Shown in pieces: positions 8,997-64,000 of a stretch of 64,000 bases of DNA (position 1 is its first letter; every line of letters starts with the position of its first letter). Both the position numbers and the translations under genes were made by a program. A model generated the notes under the pieces. It saw only the letters and a list, made by a program, of their open reading frames with translations. It was not told where the DNA came from and made no database searches. The stretch comes from an uncultured Actinomycetes bacterium (lineage in GTDB: Bacteria > Actinomycetota > Thermoleophilia > RBG-16-64-13). The stretch spans positions 127,324 to 191,323 of the forward strand of contig CAWHIX010000008.1 in NCBI GenBank assembly GCA_963829545.1, written 5' to 3'.

Positions 8997-10859
8997 ATGG
9001 GGAAGCTGCTGTTCGTCGACCTGACGAACAGGACGTTTCACGAAGAGGAGCTGTCGGAGGATACGGCGCGCCACTTCGTGGGCGGCTACGGCATCGGCGC
9101 TCGCATAATCATGGAGCGCACCAAGCCGGGGATCGACCCCCTGGGCCCGGAGAACATCTTCGGGATCGGGACCGGTCCGCTCACCCTTTCCGGTGTCTAC
9201 TCCACCTGCCGCTTCTCCACGATGGGCAAATCGCCGCTGACCGGCTACTGGGGCGATGCCAACTGTGGGGGCGATTTCGCCAATGCCTTCAAGGCCTCCG
9301 GCTACGATCTCGTCTTCTTCTCGGGGAAGGCCCCGTATCCCGTCTATCTGCTCATCACCGATGGGAAGGTGGAGCTGAAGGACGCCCGTCACCTGTGGGG
9401 CAAGGACACCACGGTCACCGAGGAGCTCATCAGGCAGGAGAACGTCAACAAGAAGCTCAAGGTGGCCGTCATCGGCCAGGCGGGCGAACGTCTCAGCCGG
9501 ATCGCGGCCGTGATGAACGACCGGGGACGGGCCGCCGCGCGCTCGGGGCTGGGAGCGGTCATGGGCTCGAAGAACCTCAAAGCCGTGGCCTGTACGGGCA
9601 GCGTGCGGCCTGAGCTGGTGGACAAGCCCCGCATCCAGGCCCTCATGAAGGAGATGATCAGACAGACGAAGGAGACCCCCTCGGGCATGTTCTATGGCCT
9701 CAGCCACGGGGGTACGCCAGGCGCCATGGTAATGCACATGCACGACCACGACGTGCCCATCAAGAACTGGAGCGGCAACACCGTCGACGACTTCCCCGAG
9801 TCCAGGTGGGGCTCGGTCGCGCTCGACGGCATGCTCAAGTACATCAAGAAGAGCTACGCCTGCACGGGCTGCCCGGTGGCCTGCGGCTCGGAGCTCACGG
9901 TCGAGGAGGGCAAGTACCCGGTCCGCGACTCGCACAAGCCCGAGTACGAGACCCTGGCCGCCTTTGGGCCCATGTGTCTGAACGACAACATGGAATCGCT
10001 GATCTACCTGAACGAACTGTGCAACCTGCACGGCATGGACACCATCTCGGCGGGCGCCACTCTGGCCTTCGCCATCGACTGTTACGAGAACGGCATCCTC
10101 TCCAAAGCAGACACCGACGGCCTCGAGCTGACCTGGGGCAACAGCGACGCCCATGTGGCGGTGCTGGAGAAGATGTGCCGACGCGAGGGCATCGGCGACA
10201 TCTTGGCCGACGGGGCCAAATGGGCCGCGGAGAAGATCGGCGGGGGCTCGGAAAGCCTGGCCATGCACGCCGGCGGAGAGATGCTCGCCATGCACGATCC
10301 CCGCTGCTTCCCCGGCTGGGGGGCCACCTACATCTCCGATGCCACCCCGGGCAGACATACACGGGGAGGAACGGCCTTTCCCGAGCACGGCGGCGTGAAC
10401 GAGATCGTGTATGCGGGCCTGGGCGTGCCCTTCAAACTGGACCCCTACGATTCGACCGACAAGGGGAAGTACCATGCCCTGCTTGCCGGATGGCAGCATT
10501 GGGTGAACACTTCGGGTGCCTGTCTCTTCGGCGTCGACAGTATGCCTCTCGACTTCGTGGGCTGCATGCGCGCCATAACCGGTTGGGACCTCGACTACGA
10601 CGAGATCATCGAGACCGGTAACCGCATCACCACGCTCCTCCACGCCTTCAACCTACGGGAGGGCTTTCAGCCGGGCGACTTCAGGCTTCCGGAGAGGGCG
10701 AGGGGCAATCCTCCGCTGGAAGCAGGCGGTCTTGAGGGCGTGACCGTGGATTCCGAGGGTCTCAAGCGGCAGTTCTACGAAGCCATGGGTTTCGACCCGG
10801 CGACGGGGGCCATCGCTCCCGAGCGGATCGTCGCCCTGGGACTGGATGATGTGCTGTAG
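8997..10859 (+). CDS. Tungsten-type aldehyde:ferredoxin oxidoreductase (AOR family), copy 1.
   Basis: N-terminus YMGKLLFVDLTNRTF and internal AVMGSKNLKAV are typical of the AOR N-terminal domain. About 620 aa. Alternative starts GTG 8934 or ATG 8940 overlap the OYE stop. Confidence 0.85.
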   Translation: MGKLLFVDLTNRTFHEEELSEDTARHFVGGYGIGARIIMERTKPGIDPLGPENIFGIGTGPLTLSGVYSTCRFSTMGKSPLTGYWGDANCGGDFANAFKASGYDLVFFSGKAPYPVYLLITDGKVELKDARHLWGKDTTVTEELIRQENVNKKLKVAVIGQAGERLSRIAAVMNDRGRAAARSGLGAVMGSKNLKAVACTGSVRPELVDKPRIQALMKEMIRQTKETPSGMFYGLSHGGTPGAMVMHMHDHDVPIKNWSGNTVDDFPESRWGSVALDGMLKYIKKSYACTGCPVACGSELTVEEGKYPVRDSHKPEYETLAAFGPMCLNDNMESLIYLNELCNLHGMDTISAGATLAFAIDCYENGILSKADTDGLELTWGNSDAHVAVLEKMCRREGIGDILADGAKWAAEKIGGGSESLAMHAGGEMLAMHDPRCFPGWGATYISDATPGRHTRGGTAFPEHGGVNEIVYAGLGVPFKLDPYDSTDKGKYHALLAGWQHWVNTSGACLFGVDSMPLDFVGCMRAITGWDLDYDEIIETGNRITTLLHAFNLREGFQPGDFRLPERARGNPPLEAGGLEGVTVDSEGLKRQFYEAMGFDPATGAIAPERIVALGLDDVL

Positions 10860-22025: not shown

Positions 22026-24311
22026 ATGGGCGTCGAAGAGAAGAAGATCGTCTGCTGGGCGTCGCCGGGCTGCATCCATCAGTGCGGACTCATCGCCACC
22101 GTGAAGGACGGCGAACTGGTCGGCCTACGGGGCAACCCGGACTATCCCACCCCCAATCACGGCTGCGGCGACCGCATGCCTCACCACGCCAAGTGGCTGT
22201 ATAGCTCGGAGCAGCTTCTCTATCCGCTGAAGAGAAAGGGCGAGAGGGGCGAGAACCAATGGGAACGCGTCTCCTGGGATCAGGCCCTGGATGAGATAGC
22301 GACTAAGCTCGTCGACCTCAAGCAGGAGTACGGCGCCGAGACCCTCGCCGTCCAGGAGGGGACCTATCGCAACGATCACTACGGCCTGCGCGCCCGCTTC
22401 CTGCATCTCTTCGAAAACCCCATGAACATCGGCTGCGCCGGCACCATCTGCCGCTGCAACACTATCGCCCTCAACTACGCGCTCCTGGGCATGACCAACT
22501 CCAGACCGAAGCTGCCCAACCTCAAGTGTCTGGTCATCGAGGGCTGCAACCTCAGCGACACGGCCCCGCTCGATTTCCAGCGGCTCAAGAAACGCATGGC
22601 GGAAGGCGACCTCAAGCTCATCGTCATCGATCCCCGGCGCACCGAGGCGGGCAGGCTCGCCGACATCTGGGTGCAGTTGCGTCCGGGCACCGACACGGCT
22701 CTCTTCATGGCCTGGATCAATGTGATCATCGAGGAGGGTCTGTACGACAGGTCTTTCGTCGAGCAGTGGACCTTCGGCTTCGACGAGTTGCGCGCCCGGG
22801 CCGCCGAGTACACCCCCGAGAGGGTCGCGGAGATCACCTGGGTCTCCGCGGATGTCATCCGGGAATCGGCGCGCATGTACGCTACCAATTGGCCGGCGGG
22901 CTTCCACTGGGGAAGCGCCACCGACATGCTGGGGCGCAACTCCATCAGGGTCGAGCAGGCAAGGATCTGCCTGCGGGCCATCACGGGCAACCTGGCCATC
23001 GGCGGCGGGGAGGTGATCGTCGGGCCCGGGCCCATCATCGGCGGCACCATCGGCGTGCGCGATTCCATGCTCGCCCTGCCCGAGAAGGTCAGCCCCGAGC
23101 AGCGGAAGAAACAGCTCGGCGCCGATAGGTTCAAGCTTCTCGGGTGGCCGGGCTACGAGGCCATGGGCAAGTATCACGAGGAGACCTACGGCGTGCCCTT
23201 CCCCACGGCGGCCCACAACTTCGTGGCGGTGCAGCCTCTCATCTGGAAGGCGGTCCTCGAGGAAGACCCCTATCCGGTGAAGGCCATGATCACCTGGGGC
23301 AGCAACGTGCTCCTCAACGGGGGAGACGTCAAGACCATCTACAAGGCGCTCAAGAGTCCCAACCTGGAGTTGCACGTGGTGCTGGAGCACTTCATGACGC
23401 CCACGGCACTCCTGGCCGATTACGTGCTTCCCATAGCGAGCAAGCTCGAAAAGCCCATGTGCGCCACCCACGAGGACTTCGCACCCAACATCGCCTGCGG
23501 CGAGGCGGCGGTGGAGCCGCGGGGCGAGCGCCGCGGCGACTTCTTCGTGTGGAAGGGGCTTGCCGACCGCCTGGGCTTCGGCGAGTACTTTCCCTGGGCG
23601 ACGGAGGAGGAGTTGGCCGACTATCGCCTGGCTCCTCTGGGCCGGACTTTCAAGGAAGTCGCCACCCAGGAGTACTTCGTGCGTAGCGACGAGCCCTGGA
23701 CCTACGACACCATCAACCCCAGGACGGGCAAGCGGACCGGGTTCGCCACTCCGTCGGGCAAGGTGGAACTCTACTCCAACGTGCTGGAGCAGCTGGGCTA
23801 CGACCCCCTGCCCTTCTACGAGGAACCCCCGGAGAGCCCCATCAGCACCCCGGAGGTGGCCGTGGAGTACCCGTACATACTCATCACGGGCGGCAACTTC
23901 CGGCCCATGTTCCACTCCGAGAACCGGCAACTGGGTGTCGGCACCCGCGAGCAGTACCCCGACCCCATCATGGACATCCACCCGGACACCGCCCGAGAGC
24001 ACGGCATCGAGGAGGGCGACTGGGTGTTCGTCGAGACCCGCAAAGGCGTGATCCGGCAGCGGGCCAAGCTCACGGACGAGATCGACCCACGGGTGGTCAA
24101 CGTGCAGAGCCACTGGTGGTTCCCGGAGCAGCCGGCTCGAGAGCCGTGGCTGCATGGTCTTTGGGAGTCGAACTGCAACGTGCTCACTGCCGCGGACGAC
24201 CCGGATACCTTCGACCCGGTGACCGGCGGTTGGCCGCTGCGTGCGCTCCTGTGCAAGGTCTACAAGGCGGAGACCGTCGGTGGGCGGACTCCATCGCCCC
24301 GAAGTACGTGA
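22026..24311 (+). CDS. Cytoplasmic molybdo/tungstopterin oxidoreductase of the DMSO-reductase superfamily, acetylene-hydratase-like clade (tentative).
   Basis: 761 aa. N-terminal Cys motif VCWASPGCIHQCG...HGCGD ([4Fe-4S]) and no Tat signal. Blocks YPLKRKGERGENQWERVSWDQALDEIA, LKSPNLELHVVLEHFMTPTALLADYVLP and the C-terminus PLRALLCKVYKAE resemble what I remember of acetylene hydratase. Confidence 0.8.
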   Translation: MGVEEKKIVCWASPGCIHQCGLIATVKDGELVGLRGNPDYPTPNHGCGDRMPHHAKWLYSSEQLLYPLKRKGERGENQWERVSWDQALDEIATKLVDLKQEYGAETLAVQEGTYRNDHYGLRARFLHLFENPMNIGCAGTICRCNTIALNYALLGMTNSRPKLPNLKCLVIEGCNLSDTAPLDFQRLKKRMAEGDLKLIVIDPRRTEAGRLADIWVQLRPGTDTALFMAWINVIIEEGLYDRSFVEQWTFGFDELRARAAEYTPERVAEITWVSADVIRESARMYATNWPAGFHWGSATDMLGRNSIRVEQARICLRAITGNLAIGGGEVIVGPGPIIGGTIGVRDSMLALPEKVSPEQRKKQLGADRFKLLGWPGYEAMGKYHEETYGVPFPTAAHNFVAVQPLIWKAVLEEDPYPVKAMITWGSNVLLNGGDVKTIYKALKSPNLELHVVLEHFMTPTALLADYVLPIASKLEKPMCATHEDFAPNIACGEAAVEPRGERRGDFFVWKGLADRLGFGEYFPWATEEELADYRLAPLGRTFKEVATQEYFVRSDEPWTYDTINPRTGKRTGFATPSGKVELYSNVLEQLGYDPLPFYEEPPESPISTPEVAVEYPYILITGGNFRPMFHSENRQLGVGTREQYPDPIMDIHPDTAREHGIEEGDWVFVETRKGVIRQRAKLTDEIDPRVVNVQSHWWFPEQPAREPWLHGLWESNCNVLTAADDPDTFDPVTGGWPLRALLCKVYKAETVGGRTPSPRST

Positions 24312-24352
24312 AGCGTTCTGGGGGCGAGAGCGCCGCAGAGAAGGAGAGGCTC

Positions 24353-27257
24353 ATGTCGAGTGACGGACTTCGTGGCATCGAGCCGGCGGGTGGTCGGGGA
24401 GAGCAGTCGTTCGTTCACCACCCGCTTATCCCGTACGACCCGAATGTCGCCCTGTATTTCGCCGCCGGCCCCGTGCTGCTCCCCTTCGAGTACACCGGGT
24501 GGCAGGACGAAGTGATGTCGTACAAGCAGTCCTGTTACATCAGAGGTTCTGGCCATGAGCGTGAAGGACCGAGGCTCGACATCGGGGCCGAGCGGCAGGT
24601 CATCCGCGGAACCGGTCTACTCGGGCCCGGAGACTCGGGACCGCCGGCCCTCGTGCACGTCAAGGAAGACAGGATCACGAGGATCAGGCCCCTGAACTAC
24701 GAGCTCGAGTACGACAAGAAGGACTTCAATCTCTGGAAGATGGAGGCGAGGGGAAAGACCTTCGCACCTCCCCTGCGTGCAGTCCTAGGTCCCATCGGTC
24801 AGGCCTACAAGAAGCGCGTGTACTCCAAGAACCGAGTGCGTTATCCGCTCAAGCGGGTGGACTGGGACCCCGAGGGCGCTTCGGGGTCCGACGGTCCCGG
24901 CGGGCGCAACACCCAGAACCGGGGGCGGAGCAAGTACGTGCGCATCGGCTGGGACGAGGCCGCCGAGTTGGTGGCGGCGGAACTGAAGAGGATGAAGGAG
25001 ACCTACGGTCCCGAGGCCGTGCTCTCCCAGTCCGACATGCATGGCGAGACGAAGCACCTCAGTCCCAGCCATGGCTGTGCCAACCGCCTCCTCTCCCTGT
25101 TGGGTGGCTACACCGTCCAGATGCGCAACCTGGACAGCTGGGAAGGGCAGAACTGGGGCGCCAAGCACGTGTGGGGTTGCGAGCCGGTAGGGGAGATGGG
25201 GCCGACGGCCAACCTCTACCCCGACATCGCCGAGCACGGGGAACTGCTCCTCTTCTGGGGTTGCGACCCGGAGACCACCGCCCATCCCATCCAGGGCATG
25301 CTGGCCAGCCGGCTCTGCTACTGGCTCTCGGACGTCGGTCTGAAGTCCGTCTACGTCTGTCCCGACCTCAACTACGGCGCCGCCGTGCATGCGGATAAGT
25401 GGATCCCCGTCCTGCCCAACACCGATGCCGCGCTGCAGCTGGCCATCGCTTACGTGTGGATCACCGAAGGCACCTACGACAAGGACGTACATCGCCACCC
25501 ATTCCTACGGCTTCGACAAGTTCGAGGACTACGTCCTGGGCAAAGAGGACGGCGTGCCCAAGACGCCGGCGTGGGCGTCTGAGAAATGCGGCGTACCGGA
25601 CTTCACCATCAAGGCGCTCGCTCGCGACTGGGCCGATAAGATCACCAGCCTCATCCACGGCAATGCCGGCCCGGGCATAAGAGGCCCTTACTCCACTGAG
25701 CCGGCCCGCCTGGAGGCCATGCTCCTGGGCATGAGCGGACTGGGCAAGCCCGGCGTCCACCAGGCCAAGATGATCGAGTGGTTCCTGTGGCACAAGTGGC
25801 TGCCCTTGCCGTATCAGGGCAAAGTCACGCCCGCCCTGCCCCTGTTCGCCGAGCAGGTGCGCCCGGCAGGAGCAATGACCTTCAAGGACGGCATGATGGG
25901 CACCTACGCGGGTACTCACCCCGAAATGCGGGCCCTGACCGCACCCGCGGCCAATCCGCCTCTCCAAGTCATCCCCAAGTGCCTCATCCACGACGCCATC
26001 CTCGACCCGCCCATCAGCTGGTGGGGCCTGCACGGTTTTCTCGAACCGGTCGCGGAGCAGTTCAAGGAGCACACCTATCCGGCTCCGGGATGCTCGGAGG
26101 TGCACATGATCTGGACCGACTCCCCCTGCTGGATCACCTGCTGGAACGACTCCAACAGCTACATCAAGGCTCTCCAGTCGCCCTCCGTCGAGTGCATCGT
26201 GGCCCAGCATCCCTGGCTGGAGAACGACTGCCTCATGGCGGACATCATCCTGCCGGTAGGGACCCGCTACGAGATGCTCGACATCGGTGAGGACGTGGGT
26301 AGCGGTGTCGTCATGTCCATCTATCTGCAGGATCACTGCGTGAACCCAGTGGGGGAATCGCTGTCCGACTTCGACGTGGTGGCGAAGATCGCCGAGAAGC
26401 TGGGTCTGCTGGAGGATTACACACAGGGCAAGACCATGGAGGAGAAGCAGAGACTGGCCTTCGACGGCTCCGGCGTGGAAGACCTCATCTCCTGGGAGGA
26501 TCTAAGGAGAAGCAATACTTCGTCATCCCCTGCAGCGACGACGTGAAGGACCAGCCGCCCGGCCTGCGCGATTTCGCCGACGACCCGGCAAGGCCAGCCC
26601 TCTGAGCACCCCCACCGGTCTGCTGGAGTACTCGTCGAGCGCTCTGGAGGAGCACTTCCCCGACGACCCGGAGCGGCCGCCGGTGGCGCACTGGATCGAG
26701 AAGGGCGAGAGTCACGACGAGCGGCGCAGCAGCGAGCGGGCTGCGGAGTATCCGCTGCTCTGCATGTCGAACCACCCTCGCTGGCGCATGCACGCCCAGG
26801 GCGACGACATCACCTGGACCCGCGAAATACCGACGATGAAGATCACGGGAGCGGACGGTTATCAGTACGAGCCGGTGTGGCTCAACACCGCCGAGGCGGA
26901 GCTGCGGGGCATCGCTCAGGGCGATATCGTCAAGATCTACAACGAACGGGGCATCGTCCTGGGCGGCGCCTTCGTCACCGAACGGCTCATGCCCGGCGTG
27001 GCCTACATGGACCACGGAGCCAGGTGGGACCCCATCATCCCCGGCAAGCTGGACCGGGGGGAGCCATCAACACCATCACGCCGCACAAGGTCACCTCCAA
27101 GAGGGCGACCGGCATGGTGGTGAGCGGGTTCCTGGTCGAGGTGGCCAAGGTGAGCGACGAGGAGATGGCCGGCTGGCGCCGGGACTACCCGGAGGCCTTC
27201 GACAGAGACTACGACGCTCGTGACGGGCGTGTCCCTGTCCGGCTGGCTTCAGGAATA
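24353..27257 (+). pseudogene. Transhydroxylase-like large subunit, module 3. It has an unusual N-terminal extension of about 75 aa and at least 4 apparent frameshifts.
   Basis: Ribosome-binding site AAGGAGAGG before the ATG. After the extension the protein aligns with modules 1 and 2 (LDIGAERQVIRGTG.., WKMEARGKTF, VRIGWDEAAELVAAELKRMKETYG). The frame breaks at about 25490, about 26510, about 27060 and about 27200. The true end is probably ..SGWLQE* at 27257. Confidence 0.7.
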
Positions 27258-43269: not shown

Positions 43270-45069
43270 TCAGAGACGCACGTCGACGCCGACCTCGGCC
43301 AGCTTGGCCTCGGTCGGCACCCCGTTCTCGTCCCATCCCCGCAGCCGATAGTATTCTCTTAGGCCCTCCGCGAACGCCTCCCGGCCTATGGCCTTGCCGG
43401 CCGCTGGGCCTTCGGAGAAGGCGTCGCCGAGCTCGACGAGCTTCGCAGGAACCGCGTCGGCCTCGACTCCTTCGCGCAGGTTGAAGAGCCGGCCCAGGTT
43501 CCAGATGCGCTCCCCGAGGCGCATGACGTCGTCCTCGGTCCACTCCTTGTGCCACACGTGGCGCAGCATCTGCGAAAGCTGGTCGGGGTCGACGCCCCAG
43601 AAGTCGCACCAGATGCCGCTGAACTTGGCCGAGCTGAAGTTCTGGCCGATGAAGCCGTCGGCCACGCGGCCGCCGATGACTTGGGCCGCCTTGCCCTCCA
43701 GGCTGTCGGGCGGACGCGAACCCTCCAGGATCTCGTCGGCTACCGGATAGGTGCGCATGTGACAGCCACCCCGGTCGGAAGTGGCGTAGGCCAGGCTCAT
43801 GCCGAAGGTGCCCCGGGGATCGTAGCCGGGCAGTTCGAGGTTCTTGACCTCCATGGCCAGCTCGGGCACGCCATACTTGGCCGCCAGAGCCCGCGCGCCG
43901 AGCGCCAGCTCCGCTCCTGCGTCCCGACGAGCGGCGATGAGCTCGGGCATGCGCAGGTAGCCCTCCGGTTCGCCGAAGCGGACGCCGAAGTCGGCCACGC
44001 CTCGCTCGGTCATGTCCATGGCCAGGGCCACGACCGAGCCGGTGGAGATGGTGTCGAGCCCCCACTCGTCGCACTCGCGGTTGAAGCGCATGAGGGCTTC
44101 GATGTCGCCCATGCCGCAGTTGGTGCCGCACAGGGCGATGGTCTCGAACTCCGGGCCCTCGGACTTCACATCCCCGATCTCGTGCACCTGCCGGCAGGAC
44201 AGGGAGCACTGATAGCAGCCCCGATTGCCGACCTTGATCTTCTGAAAGGCCTCGGAGTTGATGTTGCCCACCTCTTCGAAGCTGCCGGCGGACCAGTTGC
44301 GCGTGGGGATGGCACCCGCCCCGTCCACGGGGTCGACGAGGATGGGCGTGCCCTCCTCGTTGGCCCACAGGTTGGCGTCGGTGAGCACGTACTCCTTGTG
44401 CATGCGGACCATGTCGGCCAGGAAGGCCCGCGCGTCGCCCACGGACACCGACCCGGTGCCGCGAACGGCTACGGCCTTCAGGTTCTTGGCGCCGAAGAGG
44501 GCGCCGTGGCCGCCCCGTCCGGCCTTGTGGAACTGGTCGGTGCTGAGGCAGGCCCAGGGTAGGCGGTTCTCGCCTCCGGGTCCGATGGAAAGCACCTTCG
44601 CCTGGGGGTCGAGATCACGCCGCAGCGCCGCTTCGACCTCGGAGGTCTTCAGACCCCAATACTCCTCGGCGGGCAGGAACTCCACCTTGCCGTCCGCGAT
44701 CCAGACCACCGTGGGGGAGGAGGCGGCGCCACTGATGATGACGATGTCGTAGCCCGCGAACTTCAACTCCGGGGCGAAGGAGCCGCCCACATAGCTGTCG
44801 TCGAGGATGCCGGTGGTGGGGCTCTTGGCTCCCACGACCAGGCGGGAAGCGGTGCTGACGTTGGTGCCCGCGAAGGGGCCGGTGACCAGGAAGACCGGGT
44901 TGTCCGGCGACCAGGGGTCGACTCCCGGTGGGACGTACTCCCACATGTAGCGGAGGAGGAGCCCTTTGCCTCCCAGATACAGCTCCGCCCAGTCCATGTT
45001 GAGCGGCTCGGTCGTCGCCGTGAGACTGGTGAGATCGACGCGAAGGACGCGTCCCTGGTAGAAGTCCAC
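43270..45069 (-). CDS. Tungsten-type aldehyde:ferredoxin oxidoreductase (AOR), copy 3, intact.
   Basis: 599 aa. MDFYQGRVLRVDLT.., LFGAKNLKAVAV, ..GREAF..YRLRGWDENGVPT..L.E.G are the AOR N-terminal and C-terminal signatures. Confidence 0.9.
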   Translation of the reverse strand: MDFYQGRVLRVDLTSLTATTEPLNMDWAELYLGGKGLLLRYMWEYVPPGVDPWSPDNPVFLVTGPFAGTNVSTASRLVVGAKSPTTGILDDSYVGGSFAPELKFAGYDIVIISGAASSPTVVWIADGKVEFLPAEEYWGLKTSEVEAALRRDLDPQAKVLSIGPGGENRLPWACLSTDQFHKAGRGGHGALFGAKNLKAVAVRGTGSVSVGDARAFLADMVRMHKEYVLTDANLWANEEGTPILVDPVDGAGAIPTRNWSAGSFEEVGNINSEAFQKIKVGNRGCYQCSLSCRQVHEIGDVKSEGPEFETIALCGTNCGMGDIEALMRFNRECDEWGLDTISTGSVVALAMDMTERGVADFGVRFGEPEGYLRMPELIAARRDAGAELALGARALAAKYGVPELAMEVKNLELPGYDPRGTFGMSLAYATSDRGGCHMRTYPVADEILEGSRPPDSLEGKAAQVIGGRVADGFIGQNFSSAKFSGIWCDFWGVDPDQLSQMLRHVWHKEWTEDDVMRLGERIWNLGRLFNLREGVEADAVPAKLVELGDAFSEGPAAGKAIGREAFAEGLREYYRLRGWDENGVPTEAKLAEVGVDVRL

Positions 45070-48496: not shown

Positions 48497-49892
48497 ATGA
48501 CCGCATCGCATGCTACGATCGACCGCAAGCTCGTCGCCGAACTGACGGAGCGCGAGGAGAAGCGCCTGGAGGACGAGACCCCCAAGTCATACGAGATGTT
48601 CAAGCGGGCGTCCAAGATCGCTGGTCAACGGGGTCTCGTCCACCTACCAGGTGCGCGACCCCTACCCGATCTACTTCACGCCACGGCAAGGGCATCGAAG
48701 ATCTACTCGGTGGACGGCCAGCGAGATCAGCGACTTTCACAACGGCTTCGGCTGCATGGTGCAGGGCCACGCCCATCCGGCCATCGTCGAGACCATCAAG
48801 AAGCGCTGCGAGCTCGGCACGCAGTTCGCCCTGCCCACCGAGGACTCCATCATCGTGGCCGAGCATCTGGCCAAGAACTTCCGTCTGCCCAAGTGGCGCT
48901 TCGTGAACTCGGGCTCCGAGGCCACCATGGACGCCATCCGCATCGCCCGCGCCTACACCGGCCGCGACGTGATCATCAAGATCTTCGGCTCCTACCACGG
49001 CCACCACGACTACGTGATGGTGAGCCTGGGTGTCGCCGATTTCGGGAGACATCGGGCCCCGCGACAACTACAAGTCGATCTCCTACGGCGCGCGGCATCC
49101 CGCAGTCGTCCATCGACATGACCGTGGCGGTGCCCTTCAACGACGCCGAGAGCATGGGAAGCCCGCATCGAGCGGCTGATCGCCGAGGGGCGCAAGCCGG
49201 CCTGCGTCATCATGGAAGCGGCCATGATGAACCTGGGCGTGGTCCTGCCCGAGCCGGGCTACCTGGAGGCAGTGCGCGACATCACCAAGAAGCACGGCAT
49301 CGTGCTCATCTTCGACGAGGTCAAGACCGGCATCTGCACGGCTCCCGGCGGCGCGGTGGAGCGCTTCGGCGTGGTGCCCGACATGGTCACCCTGGCCAAG
49401 GCCCTGGCCGGCGGGCATGCCCTCGGGCGCCATCGGCGGCAGCGAAGAGGTCATGGACGGTGGTCGCCGAGCGGCAAGGTCTACCAGGTGGGCACCTACA
49501 GCGGCAACCCCCTGGCCATGGCCGGCGCCCGCACCAGCCTGGAGGAGGTCATGACCCCGGACGCCTACAAGCACCTCAACTACCTGAACGACCGGCTCAT
49601 CAGCGAGTGCGACGCCATCGGCGCCAAGTACGACTTCCCCGGCTACACCGTGGGCATCTCGTCCAAGGGCTGCGTCAACTTCGCCACCGGCAAGATCACC
49701 GACTACGAGTCGTTCATCAAGTACCAGGACGTGGAGCTGTGCACACTGGCCTGGCTCTACAACATGAACCGAGGCGTGATCATCGCGCCGGGGCGCGAAG
49801 AAGAATGGACCCTCTCCGTGCAGCACACCGACGAGGACATCGACCGCTACGTGAACGCCTTCGAGGAGATGGTGAAGGAAGTGACGAGGTAA
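48497..49892 (+). pseudogene. Class-III (PLP) aminotransferase (glutamate-1-semialdehyde aminomutase-like), with at least 4 apparent frameshifts.
   Basis: Fragments SGSEATMDAIRIARAYTG, IFDEVKTGI, TLAKALAGG and QVGTYSGNPLAMAG are spread over at least 4 frames. Ends ..NAFEEMVKEVTR*. Confidence 0.6.
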
Positions 49893-51218
49893 TGAGCGAG
49901 ATGAGGGACACCGAGCAACTTCTCGGCGCTGCGGAACCAGAACGTTCCCCGCGGGGTGACGCAGTACAATCCCATCTTCGCCGACCACGCCAAGAACTCC
50001 ATCATCACCACCGTCGACGGGCGTGAGTACATCGACTTCGCCGGGGGCATCGGGGTCATGAACGTCGGTCACTGCCCATCCCAAGGTGGTTGCGGCCGTA
50101 CAGGGCCAGGTGGAGAAGTTCTCGCACACCTCGTTCAACGTGGTCATGTACGAGTCGTACCTGCGCCTGGCCGAGAAGCTCAACCAGTCCACGCCCGGTG
50201 ACTTCCCAAGAAGACCATGTTCGTGAACTCGGGCGCCGAAGCGGTAGAGAACGGCATCAAGATCGCCCGCTACTTCACAGGCCGCCAAGCCGTCATCGCC
50301 TTCGAAGGGGCCTTCCACGGGCGGACGCTCATGGGCATGACCCTGACCTCCAAGGTGCTCCCCTACAAGACGGGCTTCGGGCCCTTCGCCCCGGAGATCT
50401 ACCGCATCCCCTACGCCTACTGCTACCGTTGCCCGCTGTCGCTCTCCTATCCGGAGTGCGGGGTCCGCTGCGCGGAGCTTCTGACCCAGGCCTTCCAGCA
50501 ATACGTGGAAGCCGAGACGGTGGCGGCGGTGATCGTCGAGCCGGTCCTTGGCGAGGGCGGGTTCGTGGCGCCCCCGCCGGAATACCTGCGGCGGCTGAAG
50601 GAGATCTGTGAGGACAACGGCACCGTCTTCATCTGCGACGAGATCCAGACGGGGATGGGTCGCACGGGGAGCCTGTTCGCCATCGAGCGCAGCGGCGTGG
50701 TGCCCGATATCCTCCTGACCGCCAAGTCGCTGGGTGCGGGCTATCCTCTGGCCGGCATCACCGGGCGCGCCGACATCATGGATGCTCCCCCGCCAGGGTC
50801 GATAGGGGGGACGTACGGGGGTAATCCCGCGGCCTGCGAGGCCGCTCTGGCGGTGTTCGACATCATGGAGGAAGAGGGCCTGCCGGCGCGGGCGGAGGCC
50901 ATCGGCAGGCGTACGCGGGAGCGCTTCGAGGCGCTGCAGCAACGCTTTCCGGTAGTCGGTGACGTGCGTGGCGCGGGCGCCATGATGGCCATGGAGCTGG
51001 TCGAAGACCGCCAGACGAAGGCGCCTGCGGCTGCGCTTGCCAAGGAGGTGCGCCTGGAGCTGTTCGAGCGCGGGGTCCTCTGTCTGCTGGCGGGAGTGGG
51101 CGACAACGTGGTCAGGCTGCTCGTGCCTTTGACCATCGAAGACGAGGTCCTCGACCGGGGCCTGGATATGATCGAGGCCGGCCTGGAGGCCGCGCTAGCG
51201 AAACGGAGCGCCGGCTAG
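49893..51218 (+). CDS. Class-III aminotransferase, 4-aminobutyrate aminotransferase-like, with about 3 apparent frameshifts in the first 350 nt.
   Basis: After the shifts it reads ..VPRGVTQYNPIFADHAKNS..DFAGGIGVMNVGH..HPKVVAAVQGQVEKFSHT.. and is then intact from about 50217 (GAEAVENGIKIAR.. ICDEIQTGMGRTG .. TAKSLGAGYPL ..). Confidence 0.65.
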
Positions 51219-51255: not shown

Positions 51256-52566
51256 CTAACCCGCCGTCGCGAATGCCCTTTCCAGGAGCCTCAGCGCCTC
51301 GTCCACCTCGGCCGCCGAGACGATCAGCGGCGGCGTGAGGCGGATGACGTTGCCGTAGAGTCCACCCTTGCCGATGAGCAGGCCCAGGCGGCGCGTCTCC
51401 TCGAATATGCGCAGCACCTTCTTGGGGTCGGGTGCCTTGCCGTCGGGTGAGGCCGGATCGATGATCTCCAGGGCCTGCATGAGGCCCATGCCTCGGACGT
51501 CTCCGATGCTGGGATATTTCTCCTGCAAGGCTTCCAGTCCCTCACGCAGTCGGCGGCCTTGTACCTCGGCGTTGTCGGGCAGGCGGTTCTGTTCGATGAA
51601 GTCGATGGTCGCCAGCGCGGCGCGACAGCTGACCGGGTTGCCGCCGAAGGTGGCGATGGAGAGACCGCTGAAGGTGTCGGCTACCGCCGCCGTGGCCGTG
51701 GTGGCCCCCATGGGGATGCCGTTGGCGATGCCCTTCGCAAAGGTCATGATGTCCGGTTGCACGCCCCAGTGCTCGATCCCGCACCAGGCGGTGCCGGTGC
51801 GCCCCCAGCCCGTCTGCACCTCGTCGCAGATGAACAGGCCTCCGTACTTGCGGGCGATGGCAAGGACTTCCTGGAAGTACTCCTTGGGTGGGGTGATGAA
51901 GCCGCCCACGCCCTGGATGGGCTCGGCCATGAACGCGGCGATCTCTCCCGTGGTCGTCGTCTGGATGAGTTCCTCCACGTCGCGCGCGCAGCGCAGTTCG
52001 CAGGAGGGGTAGGTGAGTCCCAGGCTGCAGCGGTAGCAGTAGGGGTTGTGGGCGTGCTTGATATAGGGGATGGCACTGGGCATGGTCCGCCAAGGGGCGT
52101 GCGCGGTGATGTTGAGAGTCACCTCGCTGCGTCCGGAATAGGCGTGCCGCAGGGCGACGATGTCGGAGCGTCCGGTGGCGTGACGGGCCAGAAACACGGC
52201 GGTCTCATTGGCCTCGGTGCCCGAGGAGGTGAAGAAGCTCTTCTGAAGGGCGCCCGGGGTGATCTCGGCGATCTTCTCGGCCAGCTTGACCTGGGGCGCG
52301 GTGAGGTACAGGGTCGAGGTGTGCTGCAGGGTCTCGTTCTGGTCGATGATGGCCCGGTTCACCTCGTCGTTGCAGTGGCCCACGCTGACCGTGAGGATGC
52401 CACCGAAGAAGTCCAGGTAGTCCGTGCCCTGGTCGTCGGTGAGGTACATGCCCTTGCCGCGGACCAGGGTGAGGGGCTGTTCGTAGTACGTGCCTACGCA
52501 GGGAAAGAGGTATTCGCCCTGCAGACGCTCGATCTCGGCTCCCATGCGACCCTCGCTTGTCATCAC
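51256..52566 (-). CDS. Class-III (PLP) aminotransferase, intact (436 aa).
   Basis: SGTEANETAVFLAR, ICDEVQTGWGRTG, TFAKGIANGIPMGA (Schiff-base lysine region). Confidence 0.9.
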   Translation of the reverse strand: MMTSEGRMGAEIERLQGEYLFPCVGTYYEQPLTLVRGKGMYLTDDQGTDYLDFFGGILTVSVGHCNDEVNRAIIDQNETLQHTSTLYLTAPQVKLAEKIAEITPGALQKSFFTSSGTEANETAVFLARHATGRSDIVALRHAYSGRSEVTLNITAHAPWRTMPSAIPYIKHAHNPYCYRCSLGLTYPSCELRCARDVEELIQTTTTGEIAAFMAEPIQGVGGFITPPKEYFQEVLAIARKYGGLFICDEVQTGWGRTGTAWCGIEHWGVQPDIMTFAKGIANGIPMGATTATAAVADTFSGLSIATFGGNPVSCRAALATIDFIEQNRLPDNAEVQGRRLREGLEALQEKYPSIGDVRGMGLMQALEIIDPASPDGKAPDPKKVLRIFEETRRLGLLIGKGGLYGNVIRLTPPLIVSAAEVDEALRLLERAFATAG

Positions 52567-62487: not shown

Positions 62488-62620
62488 CAGCACCGCCGCT
62501 TCGCCTCGACGCGCCGTCGGTCGGCACCACAGGAGCGCGATTTGCGGGCTCTTTCCGTATACCCGAGCCAGTATTCTGGTATCATTCTCCAAGTCCGTAA
62601 CGTCGACTTAGGAGCACGAC

Positions 62621-63433
62621 ATGCGGCTGCGAGACATACTTACAAGAGCGGGGCTGACGGCGGCGGCCGTGGGCCTCGGCGCCGGGTTGGCAGTGCAGGG
62701 TGTGGGGTGCGGCACCGGCCAGAGCGATCGCGAGTCGGGAATCGCCGAGGGAACCGGTTCGTCGGCTCAGCCGGCCCTTCCGGCACTCGATCTGAACGCA
62801 CCTGCGGAGTTCCAGACCGCCACCTTCGCCTACGGCTGATTCTGGGGCACAGAGGCTCAGTTAGGGAGCCTCCCAGGAGTCATCCGGACGAGAGTGGGAT
62901 ACACGGGAGGGAGTACCGCGGACCCCACCTACTACAACTTGGCCGACCACACCGAGACCGTCCAGCTTGATTTCGATCCGACAAAGGTCGGCTATCAGGA
63001 GCTGGTCGAGGACTTCTTCGCCCTCCACGATGCCACTCGGTCTTCGTCGAAGGCGCAGTACAAGTCGGCCGTCTTCGTCGGCGACGCCGAGCAGGAGCGG
63101 ATCGCCCGGGCGGTGATGGAGCGGGTGCAGGGGCAGACGAAGGGAACGCTCAAGACCGAGATCCTCCCGGCCGGCAAGTTCTACCTGGCCGAGGACTATC
63201 ACCAGAAGTATGCGCTCCAGGGCAACTCCCGTTACTTCGGCGAGTTCCGGGCCATGTATCCGGACTTCTGGGACATCGTGGATTCGCCGGCGGCCACTCG
63301 CGTGAATGCGTATCTATACGGATTCGGCGCAGAAGAGCAGCGGGTTGCGGAACTGGACAGCCTCGGTCTCTCCCAGACGGCCAAGGAATCCCTGGGGAAG
63401 GTGCGCTCGGTCGCGGCCTGTCCGGTCGACTAG
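62621..63433 (+). CDS. msrA: Peptide-methionine (S)-S-oxide reductase MsrA with an N-terminal signal/lipoprotein region. Predicted selenoprotein (in-frame UGA at 62837-62839).
   Basis: ORFs 62621..62839 and 62894..63433 are in the same frame. Read-through gives ..[40 protein letters not shown].., the MsrA G(C)FWG active site with the catalytic Cys position occupied by TGA. Confidence 0.8.
62852..62872 (+). promoter_or_regulatory. Candidate bacterial SECIS hairpin downstream of the msrA UGA.
   Basis: Perfect 7-bp stem GAGGCUC / GAGCCUC with 7-nt loop AGUUAGG, starting 12 nt after the UGA codon. Confidence 0.5.
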
Positions 63434-63470: not shown

Positions 63471-64000
63471 TCAGGCCGACGAAGCCCGGCGCGACCGCTG
63501 GTCGCGCCACCAGAGGTAGTAGGCCAGAGGGATCACGATAGCTATGGTCACCAGAGCGATGACCTGCGCCTCCCTGAGCCCGAACACGATCACCTTGTTG
63601 ACACGCAGGAACGACAGGAAGAACCTGCCCAACGAGTAGAGGCCGATGTAGAGCAGGAAGGCCATCCCATCTATCTTGATCCTGGGTATGGCGACGAGCA
63701 GGATACCCACTACGATGAGCAGCCAGATCTGCTCGTAGATAGGATTGGGATGGGTGGCCACGCCCAGCAGGCGGTCGGGGATGAACGACGCCGGGTTGAC
63801 GTAGGTGATCCCCCAGGGAAGGTTCGTAGGATCGCCCCACGTGTCTCCGTTGATAATGTTGGCCGTCTTGCCGATTATCTGCGCCACGGGGAAGGCCAAC
63901 GCGGTGCTGTCGAGGACTTTGAGCAGCGGGAGCTTCTTCCACAGGCAGTAGATGACGAGCCCCGCCAGTCCGCCCCCGATCACTCCGTATATGGCCAGTC
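63471..64000 (-). CDS. lgt: Prolipoprotein diacylglyceryl transferase, 3' part (the 5' end lies beyond the window).
   Basis: Lgt C-terminal region: GDTWGDPTNLPWGITY, HPNPIYEQIWLLIV, LYSLGRFFLSFLR. The ORF continues to the window edge. Confidence 0.8.
   Translation of the reverse strand, partial: LAIYGVIGGGLAGLVIYCLWKKLPLLKVLDSTALAFPVAQIIGKTANIINGDTWGDPTNLPWGITYVNPASFIPDRLLGVATHPNPIYEQIWLLIVVGILLVAIPRIKIDGMAFLLYIGLYSLGRFFLSFLRVNKVIVFGLREAQVIALVTIAIVIPLAYYLWWRDQRSRRASSA

Follow-up and report, generated by a model that had tools for sequence, protein, structure and literature searches.

A 64,000-nucleotide stretch of DNA from an uncultured Actinomycetes bacterium (contig CAWHIX010000008.1, positions 127,324 to 191,323; hereafter the window) carries near its end, between ilvD and a convergent lgt, a gene for methionine sulfoxide reductase A (MsrA) with an in-frame TGA codon. 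Here we weigh the evidence that this TGA is translated as selenocysteine (Sec). Translation of 62621-63433 yields 271 codons with one internal stop, the TGA at 62837-62839, and a terminal TAG; the frame holds neither a second internal stop nor a frameshift. The peptide around the TGA reads FAYG*FWG (the asterisk marks the stop). With C in place of the stop, the Pfam PMSR profile (PF01625) matches residues 66-205 over profile positions 1-151 of 153 (E=1.9e-41), and NCBIfam TIGR00401 (msrA) reaches 117.1 bits, above its cut-off of 108.1. Because the PMSR match runs straight across the TGA, this codon occupies the position of the catalytic Cys, the nucleophile of the GCFWG motif. Bacterial Sec-MsrA is defined by the motif GUFWG (PMC13188914). 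Gene calling cuts the frame into two open reading frames (ORFs) of 72 and 179 residues.

The TGA recurs in related genes. A genome scan recovered four loci in metagenome-assembled genomes (MAGs) of Actinomycetota (L001-L004), all with TGA at the same msrA codon. Scanning metagenomes with two motifs of the subfamily yielded 567 confirmed relatives, and in the best 80, which were kept, the catalytic codon is TGA 78 times and TGY (TGC or TGT) twice. Among all related loci gathered, whose proteins are 39-98% identical to the window MsrA, TGA stands at this codon in 86 of 89 and TGY in three, a recurrence for which chance is no explanation. Further Cys-form members of the subfamily lie outside these 89 loci (L089-L092).

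Both parts of the frame evolve as coding sequence. Relative to a conspecific locus (L006, 96.5% nucleotide identity), the 72 codons 5' of the TGA carry three synonymous changes and one nonsynonymous change (dN/dS, or omega, 0.13), while the 190 codons 3' of it carry ten and one (omega 0.03). Against L001, L009, L002 and L007, omega 3' of the TGA is 0.15-0.27 (0.17 against L001). Purifying selection thus acts on both halves of msrA, and the gene is therefore not a pseudogene. Inactivation of msrA by a stop mutation in its catalytic codon, with an incidental hairpin behind it, would fit the split gene calls and the disruption of other genes in the assembly. It would also have to account for the identical "mutation" in 86 of 89 loci diverged down to 39% identity, for dN/dS of 0.03-0.27 across the two sides of the TGA in a frame without a second stop or frameshift, and for a hairpin that is tied to the TGA (see below). 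We consider decay of the gene effectively refuted already.

TGA is the commonest stop in the window, ending 28 of 50 heuristically called genes, and is therefore not a reassigned codon. The same break is present in independent assemblies of the same species (L006) and in five cluster members, and this recurrence rules out a base-call error. An explanation by sequencing or assembly error for TGC or TGT, or by a TGA that is a sense codon for Trp or Gly, could draw on the indel errors of this assembly and on several database entries with Trp at the site. However, the errors elsewhere are indels and not substitutions, and with Trp or Gly as its catalytic residue the enzyme would be inactive. Trp is found there in public entries P0006, P0056, P0059, P0061, P0072, P0073, P0086, P0093, P0098, P0099 and P0109, with Arg once (P0115); in the Trp entries the gene caller most likely applied genetic code 4 to the TGA. 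Error or reassignment is highly implausible on these grounds.

Most of the closest database homologues have only 176-190 residues, and public pipelines call the window gene in the same way. Taken literally, this call would make the 179-residue ORF (GTG 62894 to 63433) a true, truncated MsrA-like product and the 72-codon ORF a separate small lipoprotein or leader peptide. From such a product the GxFWG motif, the nucleophile and the first beta-strand would all be missing. The codons between TGA and GTG are conserved in frame at the protein level across the family. Truncated starts also vary (155, 176, 179 and 190 residues), as expected of artefacts. The 176-190-residue lengths are the signature of gene callers restarting 3' of the stop, and we give a genuine short product next to no credence.

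Inside the ORF, downstream of the UGA, the transcript can form a hairpin that resembles a bacterial selenocysteine insertion sequence (SECIS). The segment GAGGCUC (62852-62858) pairs with GAGCCUC (62866-72) through seven Watson-Crick pairs that start 12 nucleotides after the UGA, and the loop spans +23 to +29 (position 1 being the U of UGA). A sequence-only reading of this DNA had described a frame broken by TGA alone, a TGA at the nucleophilic Cys of GCFWG, and a perfect 7-bp stem with an AGUUAGG loop 12 nucleotides downstream; the single internal stop on translation, the PMSR match across the codon, and inspection and folding of the hairpin bear out all three. A bacterial SECIS is expected within the ORF, with its stem beginning about 11 nucleotides 3' of the UGA and its apical loop 16-37 nucleotides from it, and the window hairpin fits this geometry. 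In the E. coli fdhF SECIS the minimal helix lies 11 nucleotides after the UGA, with G23-U24 in the loop. The window hairpin is similar in its placement within the ORF, in its spacing (12 nucleotides versus 11) and in its loop G-U (+24/+25 versus +23/+24). It differs from bacterial SECIS elements of the fdhF/fdnG type, as captured by the bSECISearch model, in that the window copy has no bulged U.

We assessed the hairpin with a position-specific statistic, the best gap-free helix whose apical loop contains nucleotides +24 to +26, and compared it with 400 synonymous recodings per peptide that follow each gene's own codon usage. The window hairpin (-12.1 kcal/mol) is stronger than 98.5% of its recodings (z=-2.8, p=0.015). 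Across the family the mean z is -3.4, with p<0.05 in 77% of members and p<0.01 in 57%.

The hairpin is also supported by covariation. A gap-free alignment of the 60 nucleotides from the UGA in 83 distinct Sec-form sequences has invariant G24, U25, U26, G28 and G29. The helix found in the majority of the family pairs columns 16-23 with 27-34 (consensus GACUCCCG-GUU-CGGGAGUC) and shows 42 double-substitution cells, versus 15.5 +/- 2.9 in shuffles, none of 500 of which reaches 42; its covariation score (0.219) is higher than that of every slid control. At one covarying pair, G23-C27 to A23-U27, an Arg/Gln change is coupled to a synonymous change of a Phe codon. The window and its nearest relatives share another register (columns 16-22 with 30-36), and the loop of this clade has 7 nucleotides versus 3-5 in most family members. 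Between clades the register shifts by 1-2 nucleotides, but a hairpin with G24-U26 at its centre persists; as in bacterial SECIS elements, structure is retained while sequence drifts. RNAalifold, tried on the 83 sequences, returned a weak structure that is meaningless because the helix register differs between clades, and we used explicit structures instead. No Rfam family matched in the window.

The presence of the hairpin follows the identity of the catalytic codon. Of the Sec forms, 93% have it at this position; of six Cys forms, five have a weak hairpin or none at all (-10.9, 0, -6.1, -3.6, 0 and 0 kcal/mol; Sec-form median -9.2; Mann-Whitney p=0.002), and position 24 is T or C in three of these six. 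Two Cys forms that occur among Sec forms illustrate the range. One (TGC; L013, 429-490) keeps a full SECIS hairpin of -10.9 kcal/mol, which suggests a recent Sec-to-Cys switch; the other (TGT; L063, 3057-3117) has lost both the hairpin and G24.

A recoded UGA could also be read as Cys, either by a tRNA-Cys(UCA) that mimics tRNA-Sec and depends on the SECIS and a SelB-like factor, or because the Sec pathway delivers Cys under selenium shortage. The assignment of Sec to this codon is inferred, and the subfamily includes Cys forms, which presumably work as enzymes. A candidate tRNA has been described, selC* tRNA-Cys(UCA), which occurs with a second selB copy in delta-proteobacteria and may serve to suppress opal codons (PMC5389517). 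However, selC* is reported for Syntrophobacterales and Desulfobacterales, not Actinomycetota, and a plain TGY codon would achieve the same without recoding. The presence of TGA in 86 of 89 loci argues instead for a benefit specific to Sec, which in the enzyme of Clostridium oremlandii confers 20-fold more activity than the Cys version (PMC4333827). A Cys reading is accordingly a very unlikely account of the UGA, and we favor Sec.

The protein itself resembles a known selenoprotein. Its best match of solved structure (phmmer, E=5.5e-44) is the selenoprotein MsrA of Clostridium (Alkaliphilus) oremlandii OhILAs (CoMsrA; PDB entries 4LWJ, 4LWK, 4LWL, 4LWM and 4U66). The alignment to 4U66 is gap-free over 190 residues (query 63-252, chain 6-195) and takes in chain residues 145-195 of the helical C-terminal domain, which is essential for activity in CoMsrA (PMC4333827). 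The Pfam model for this domain, PF20939 "Selenoprotein MsrA helical domain", stays below threshold on the tail of the window protein (E=0.021; 15 bits versus 23.7) and passes it in homologues P0008 and P0050. We modeled the closest full-length homologue, P0006, with AlphaFold (mean pLDDT 87). The model superposes on 4LWJ with a TM score of 0.86 over 198 columns, and one-domain MsrAs superpose on it with TM scores of about 0.6-0.78 over only about 150 columns. The active-site residues of CoMsrA, Y47, E55, Q89, Y90, H137 and Y140 (PMC4333827), correspond to Y104, E112, Q146, Y147, H194 and Y197 of the window protein; all six are present and are invariant in our protein alignment (A1). The two proteins thus share the PMSR and helical domains, Sec in GUFWG, these six residues and a SECIS within the coding sequence just after the UGA.

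We conclude that the product of msrA is very probably a Sec peptide-methionine (S)-S-oxide reductase with the two-domain build of the C. oremlandii enzyme, in which Sec73 is inserted by SECIS-directed read-through. The window gene adds an actinobacterial member to a selenoprotein family that is already known. The sequence-only reading had likewise preferred a Sec-MsrA to a pseudogene, and this preference is supported by a TGA conserved across loci of 39-98% identity, by low dN/dS on both sides of a codon that is a normal stop elsewhere in the window, and by a covarying hairpin tied to that codon. The comparison with known Sec-MsrA that it proposed agrees, the best solved match, helical domain included, being CoMsrA.

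Several results weigh against a Sec-MsrA. Neither the 64-kb window nor about 100 kb of relatives' flanks contains selA, selB, selD or a tRNA-Sec gene. ARAGORN finds the window free of tRNA genes and detects no tRNA-Sec among 60 loci, motif scans of the window for SelD (GxGCGxK) and SelB (GHVDHGK) are empty, and Pfam annotation of about 40 window genes reveals no sel gene. A flank census and the same Pfam annotation show no reductant gene near msrA. The generic folding energy of the 67-nucleotide region is unremarkable (z=-0.88 against dinucleotide shuffles; minimum free energy z=-0.38 against synonymous recodings); such generic statistics are uninformative in a sequence of 65% G+C. The hairpin register of the window is a minority one that, taken alone, shows no covariation across the family. 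Finally, indel errors elsewhere in the assembly indicate that its base-level quality is imperfect.

Table 1. Features of the msrA locus (positions in the window; Sec73 and the functional roles named are predictions).
Feature	Position	Strand	Basis or remarks
Shine-Dalgarno-like AGGAG	62610..62614	+	6 nt 5' of ATG; direct reading
msrA coding sequence, complete, 270 residues including Sec73	62621..63433	+	ATG 62621, stop TAG 63431-63433
N-terminal leader, residues 1-29; n-region R2/R4/R9 and hydrophobic AGLTAAAVGLGAGLAVQGVG	62621..62707	+	Kyte-Doolittle
Cys30 (TGC), candidate lipid-attachment Cys at leader end, VGC|GTG	62708..62710	+	lipobox-like
MsrA catalytic (PMSR) domain, residues 66-205	62816..63235	+	Pfam PF01625
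UGA codon, predicted Sec73, in G-U-F-W-G	62837..62839	+	TGA at same codon in 86/89 related loci
SECIS-like hairpin	62852..62872	+	7-bp stem 62852-58/62866-72; 7-nt loop AGUUAGG 62859-65
G24-U25-U26 of apical loop, presumed SelB contact	62860..62862	+	invariant in 83 distinct Sec forms
C-terminal helical domain, about residues 202-266	63224..63418	+	corresponds to CoMsrA 145-209
Cys267 (TGT), tail AACPVD, candidate resolving Cys	63419..63421	+	CP[VLIMT] motif
lgt (prolipoprotein diacylglyceryl transferase), convergent, cut by window end	63471..64000	-	Pfam LGT on L006 orthologue

The window protein departs from CoMsrA at both ends. CoMsrA is a cytoplasmic protein of 209 residues with no Cys, a 1-Cys type enzyme that is recycled by (seleno)glutaredoxin and not by thioredoxin (PMC4333827). 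The window protein, from an uncultured anaerobic actinobacterium and without a glutaredoxin or thioredoxin gene nearby, has in addition an N-terminal leader and linker of 62 residues with Cys30, and a C-terminal Cys267 in CPV; it therefore does not share the 1-Cys property of having no Cys beyond the catalytic Sec. The extension consists of a basic n-region, a hydrophobic stretch (best 14-residue Kyte-Doolittle mean 1.92), Cys30 and a Gly/Ser/Pro-rich linker. The leader is absent from CoMsrA, where the alignment begins at residue 6.

This leader is probably an export signal or membrane anchor, and the positive-inside rule would place the catalytic domain outside the membrane. A hydrophobic N-terminal segment is present in 70 of 74 complete N-termini of the family, an upper bound given that the most upstream start was used. 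A bacterial lipoprotein processed by Lgt and LspA is expected to have a basic n-region, a hydrophobic h-region and a lipobox [LVI][ASTVI][GAS]C whose Cys is at position 15-35. A PROSITE-style lipobox pattern is matched by 34 of the 74 relatives, including L002, L003, L004, L010 and L012. In the window protein the n- and h-regions are present and Cys30 is in range, but the lipobox is the non-canonical Q-G-V-G-C, whose Q at -4 fails the pattern; this counts against a lipoprotein, and Cys30 is for that reason a candidate lipidation site rather than a demonstrated one. Nine of the 34 lipobox-positive relatives combine the lipobox with a twin-arginine motif (e.g. SRRSLMKL...ISAC). A twin-arginine-type motif [SNHP]RR[SNF][LVF][MIF][KI] followed by a lipobox is seen in L027, L035, L046, L050, L058, L059, L065 and L072. 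Such members would be folded selenoprotein lipoproteins exported through the twin-arginine (Tat) pathway.

Cys267 sits just 3' of the helical domain, in a tail that has low confidence in the P0006 model. Of 83 Sec forms, 14 have the motif CP[VLIMT] within their final 16 residues, and 23 have a Cys within their final 14. Reasoning from the cysteines in the tail of E. coli MsrA, we propose that Cys267 may act as a resolving Cys. It is thus possible, although we hold this only tentatively and as somewhat less than an even chance, that the window gene and about half or more of the family encode an extracytoplasmic, membrane- or lipid-anchored selenoenzyme, and that the window clade has acquired the CPV resolving Cys and with it a selenenylsulfide cycle. 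An anchored MsrA of this Sec/Cys type would repair oxidised methionines on the cell surface of an anaerobe and would be recycled by an extracytoplasmic reductant. We found no description of an exported MsrA with two such residues in the literature searched.

From these features one can envision the following course. Translation would start at ATG 62621. The hairpin at 62852-72 would present G24-U25 as the ribosome meets the UGA at 62837-39 and recruit the SelB.GTP.Sec-tRNA(Sec) complex, with the result that Sec73 is inserted without termination; we infer this step from the established mechanism of bacterial SECIS elements. The leader probably sends the protein out of the cell or anchors it in the membrane, and Cys30 may be lipidated. 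The Sec73 selenolate would attack methionine-S-sulfoxide to give a selenenic acid. Either Cys267 could resolve this intermediate, forming a selenenylsulfide, or an external thiol reductant could do so directly.

Other MsrA systems share parts of this arrangement. Sec-MsrA has been recorded in C. oremlandii, in Syntrophobacter fumaroxidans and in ocean metagenomes (GOS) (PMC1794560, PMC2398784). The enzymes of S. fumaroxidans, GOS and Chlamydomonas belong to the same selenoprotein family and carry Sec at the catalytic position (PMC1794560, PMC2398784), but that of Chlamydomonas relies on a eukaryotic SECIS in the 3'-UTR. Cys-type MsrAs (E. coli, with Cys51/Cys198/Cys206; bovine; Mycobacterium tuberculosis) share the catalytic domain, its chemistry and a Cys on a flexible C-terminal tail able to fold back onto the active site; they differ in using Cys instead of Sec, in the absence of a helical domain and in being recycled by thioredoxin. 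Extracytoplasmic MsrAB proteins (Streptococcus pneumoniae MsrAB2 with Etrx1/2 and CcdA, Neisseria PilB, Haemophilus influenzae MsrAB) likewise lie outside the cytoplasmic membrane by means of a signal peptide or anchor (PMC3914529, PMC9404787). These are Cys enzymes fused to MsrB and encoded with dedicated thioredoxin-fold lipoproteins and electron shuttles. In contrast, the window msrA stands alone, has no conserved neighbour and uses Sec.

Sec-MsrA is not confined to a few Clostridia and algae. The sequence-only reading had called it rare in these terms, which understates its range given the Syntrophobacter and ocean-metagenome records cited above, and TGA occupies the catalytic codon in 78 of the best 80 metagenome loci of the two-domain subfamily. 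In environmental metagenomes this subfamily is mainly a selenoprotein, far commoner than the few examples in the literature suggest, and it occurs also in uncultured anaerobic Actinomycetota. It is mis-annotated almost everywhere in public data, as a 5'-truncated "MsrA" of 176-190 residues or with an active-site Trp, and selenoproteome surveys that use annotated proteins consequently miss it. The gene would mark its host as Sec-decoding, and selA, selB, selC and selD are predicted in other parts of the genome. To judge by its leader and C-terminal Cys, the enzyme may be a variant exposed at the surface, with recycling chemistry unlike that of CoMsrA, an increment within a known family and no new principle.

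The genomic surroundings of msrA vary. The 114 flanking ORFs across the family contain 132 Pfam families and reveal no conserved neighbour, operon partner or reductant, and the window has no thioredoxin or CcdA/DsbD gene. Directly 3' of this putative lipoprotein gene lies lgt, whose product would attach lipid to a lipobox Cys. This arrangement is not conserved, since LGT occurs in only two of the 114 flanking ORFs and next to msrA only in close relatives of the window; it is probably coincidental.

A possible reductant is encoded in a related actinobacterial MAG (L007, a 3.56-Mb contig) whose MsrA is 66% identical to that of the window. Directly 5' of its Sec-msrA lies a DsbA/FrnE-like gene (9088-9687), which is also found in L008 (8180-8779). 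In the L007 gene an in-frame TGA (9124-9126) takes the place of the first CxxC cysteine (UPFC), and the sequence reads MSFKVRAFSDYI*PFCYIG; with C substituted, the product matches Pfam DSBA (E=1.6e-22). Selenoproteins are already known among DsbA-like proteins, as a family (PMC5029168). The L007 gene is a second selenoprotein candidate that may encode a dedicated MsrA reductant, and the pair recalls the pairing of Sec-glutaredoxin with Sec-MsrA in C. oremlandii. Its TGA would provide independent, indirect support for Sec decoding in this lineage.

We found no convincing further selenoprotein among TGA-bridged ORFs with redox motifs in the window. An in-frame TGA at 49119 was rejected as a Sec codon, being an artefact of a frameshifted class-III aminotransferase gene (48497-49892, + strand), in which good protein sequence alternates between two frames with at least two switches. 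Long-read indel errors would explain this pattern, as would a pseudogene; two intact aminotransferase paralogues lie 3' of it (50217-51218 and 51256-52566). No Sec formate dehydrogenase, which the sequence-only reading expected elsewhere in the genome, was seen in the window or nearby loci. Split molybdopterin oxidoreductase genes (L006 13037-15371, L094 6952-9900 and window 24116-27123) were rejected as candidates for it, as they contain frameshifts instead of an in-frame TGA and are consistent with indel errors in these MAG assemblies.

Pfam annotation of the window shows the catabolic island of an anaerobe, dense at 54-27123 and 43270-45069. A PFL-like glycyl-radical enzyme is encoded there together with its activase, as are a B12-binding protein and its MutL-like partner. 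The island further encodes three aldehyde:ferredoxin oxidoreductases and at least four pyrogallol-hydroxytransferase-like molybdoenzymes, each of which has Fer4/CarboxypepD_reg partner subunits. Genes for FMN oxidoreductases and for class-III aminotransferases are present in the window as well. The content of the island suggests anaerobic degradation of aromatics or phenolics.

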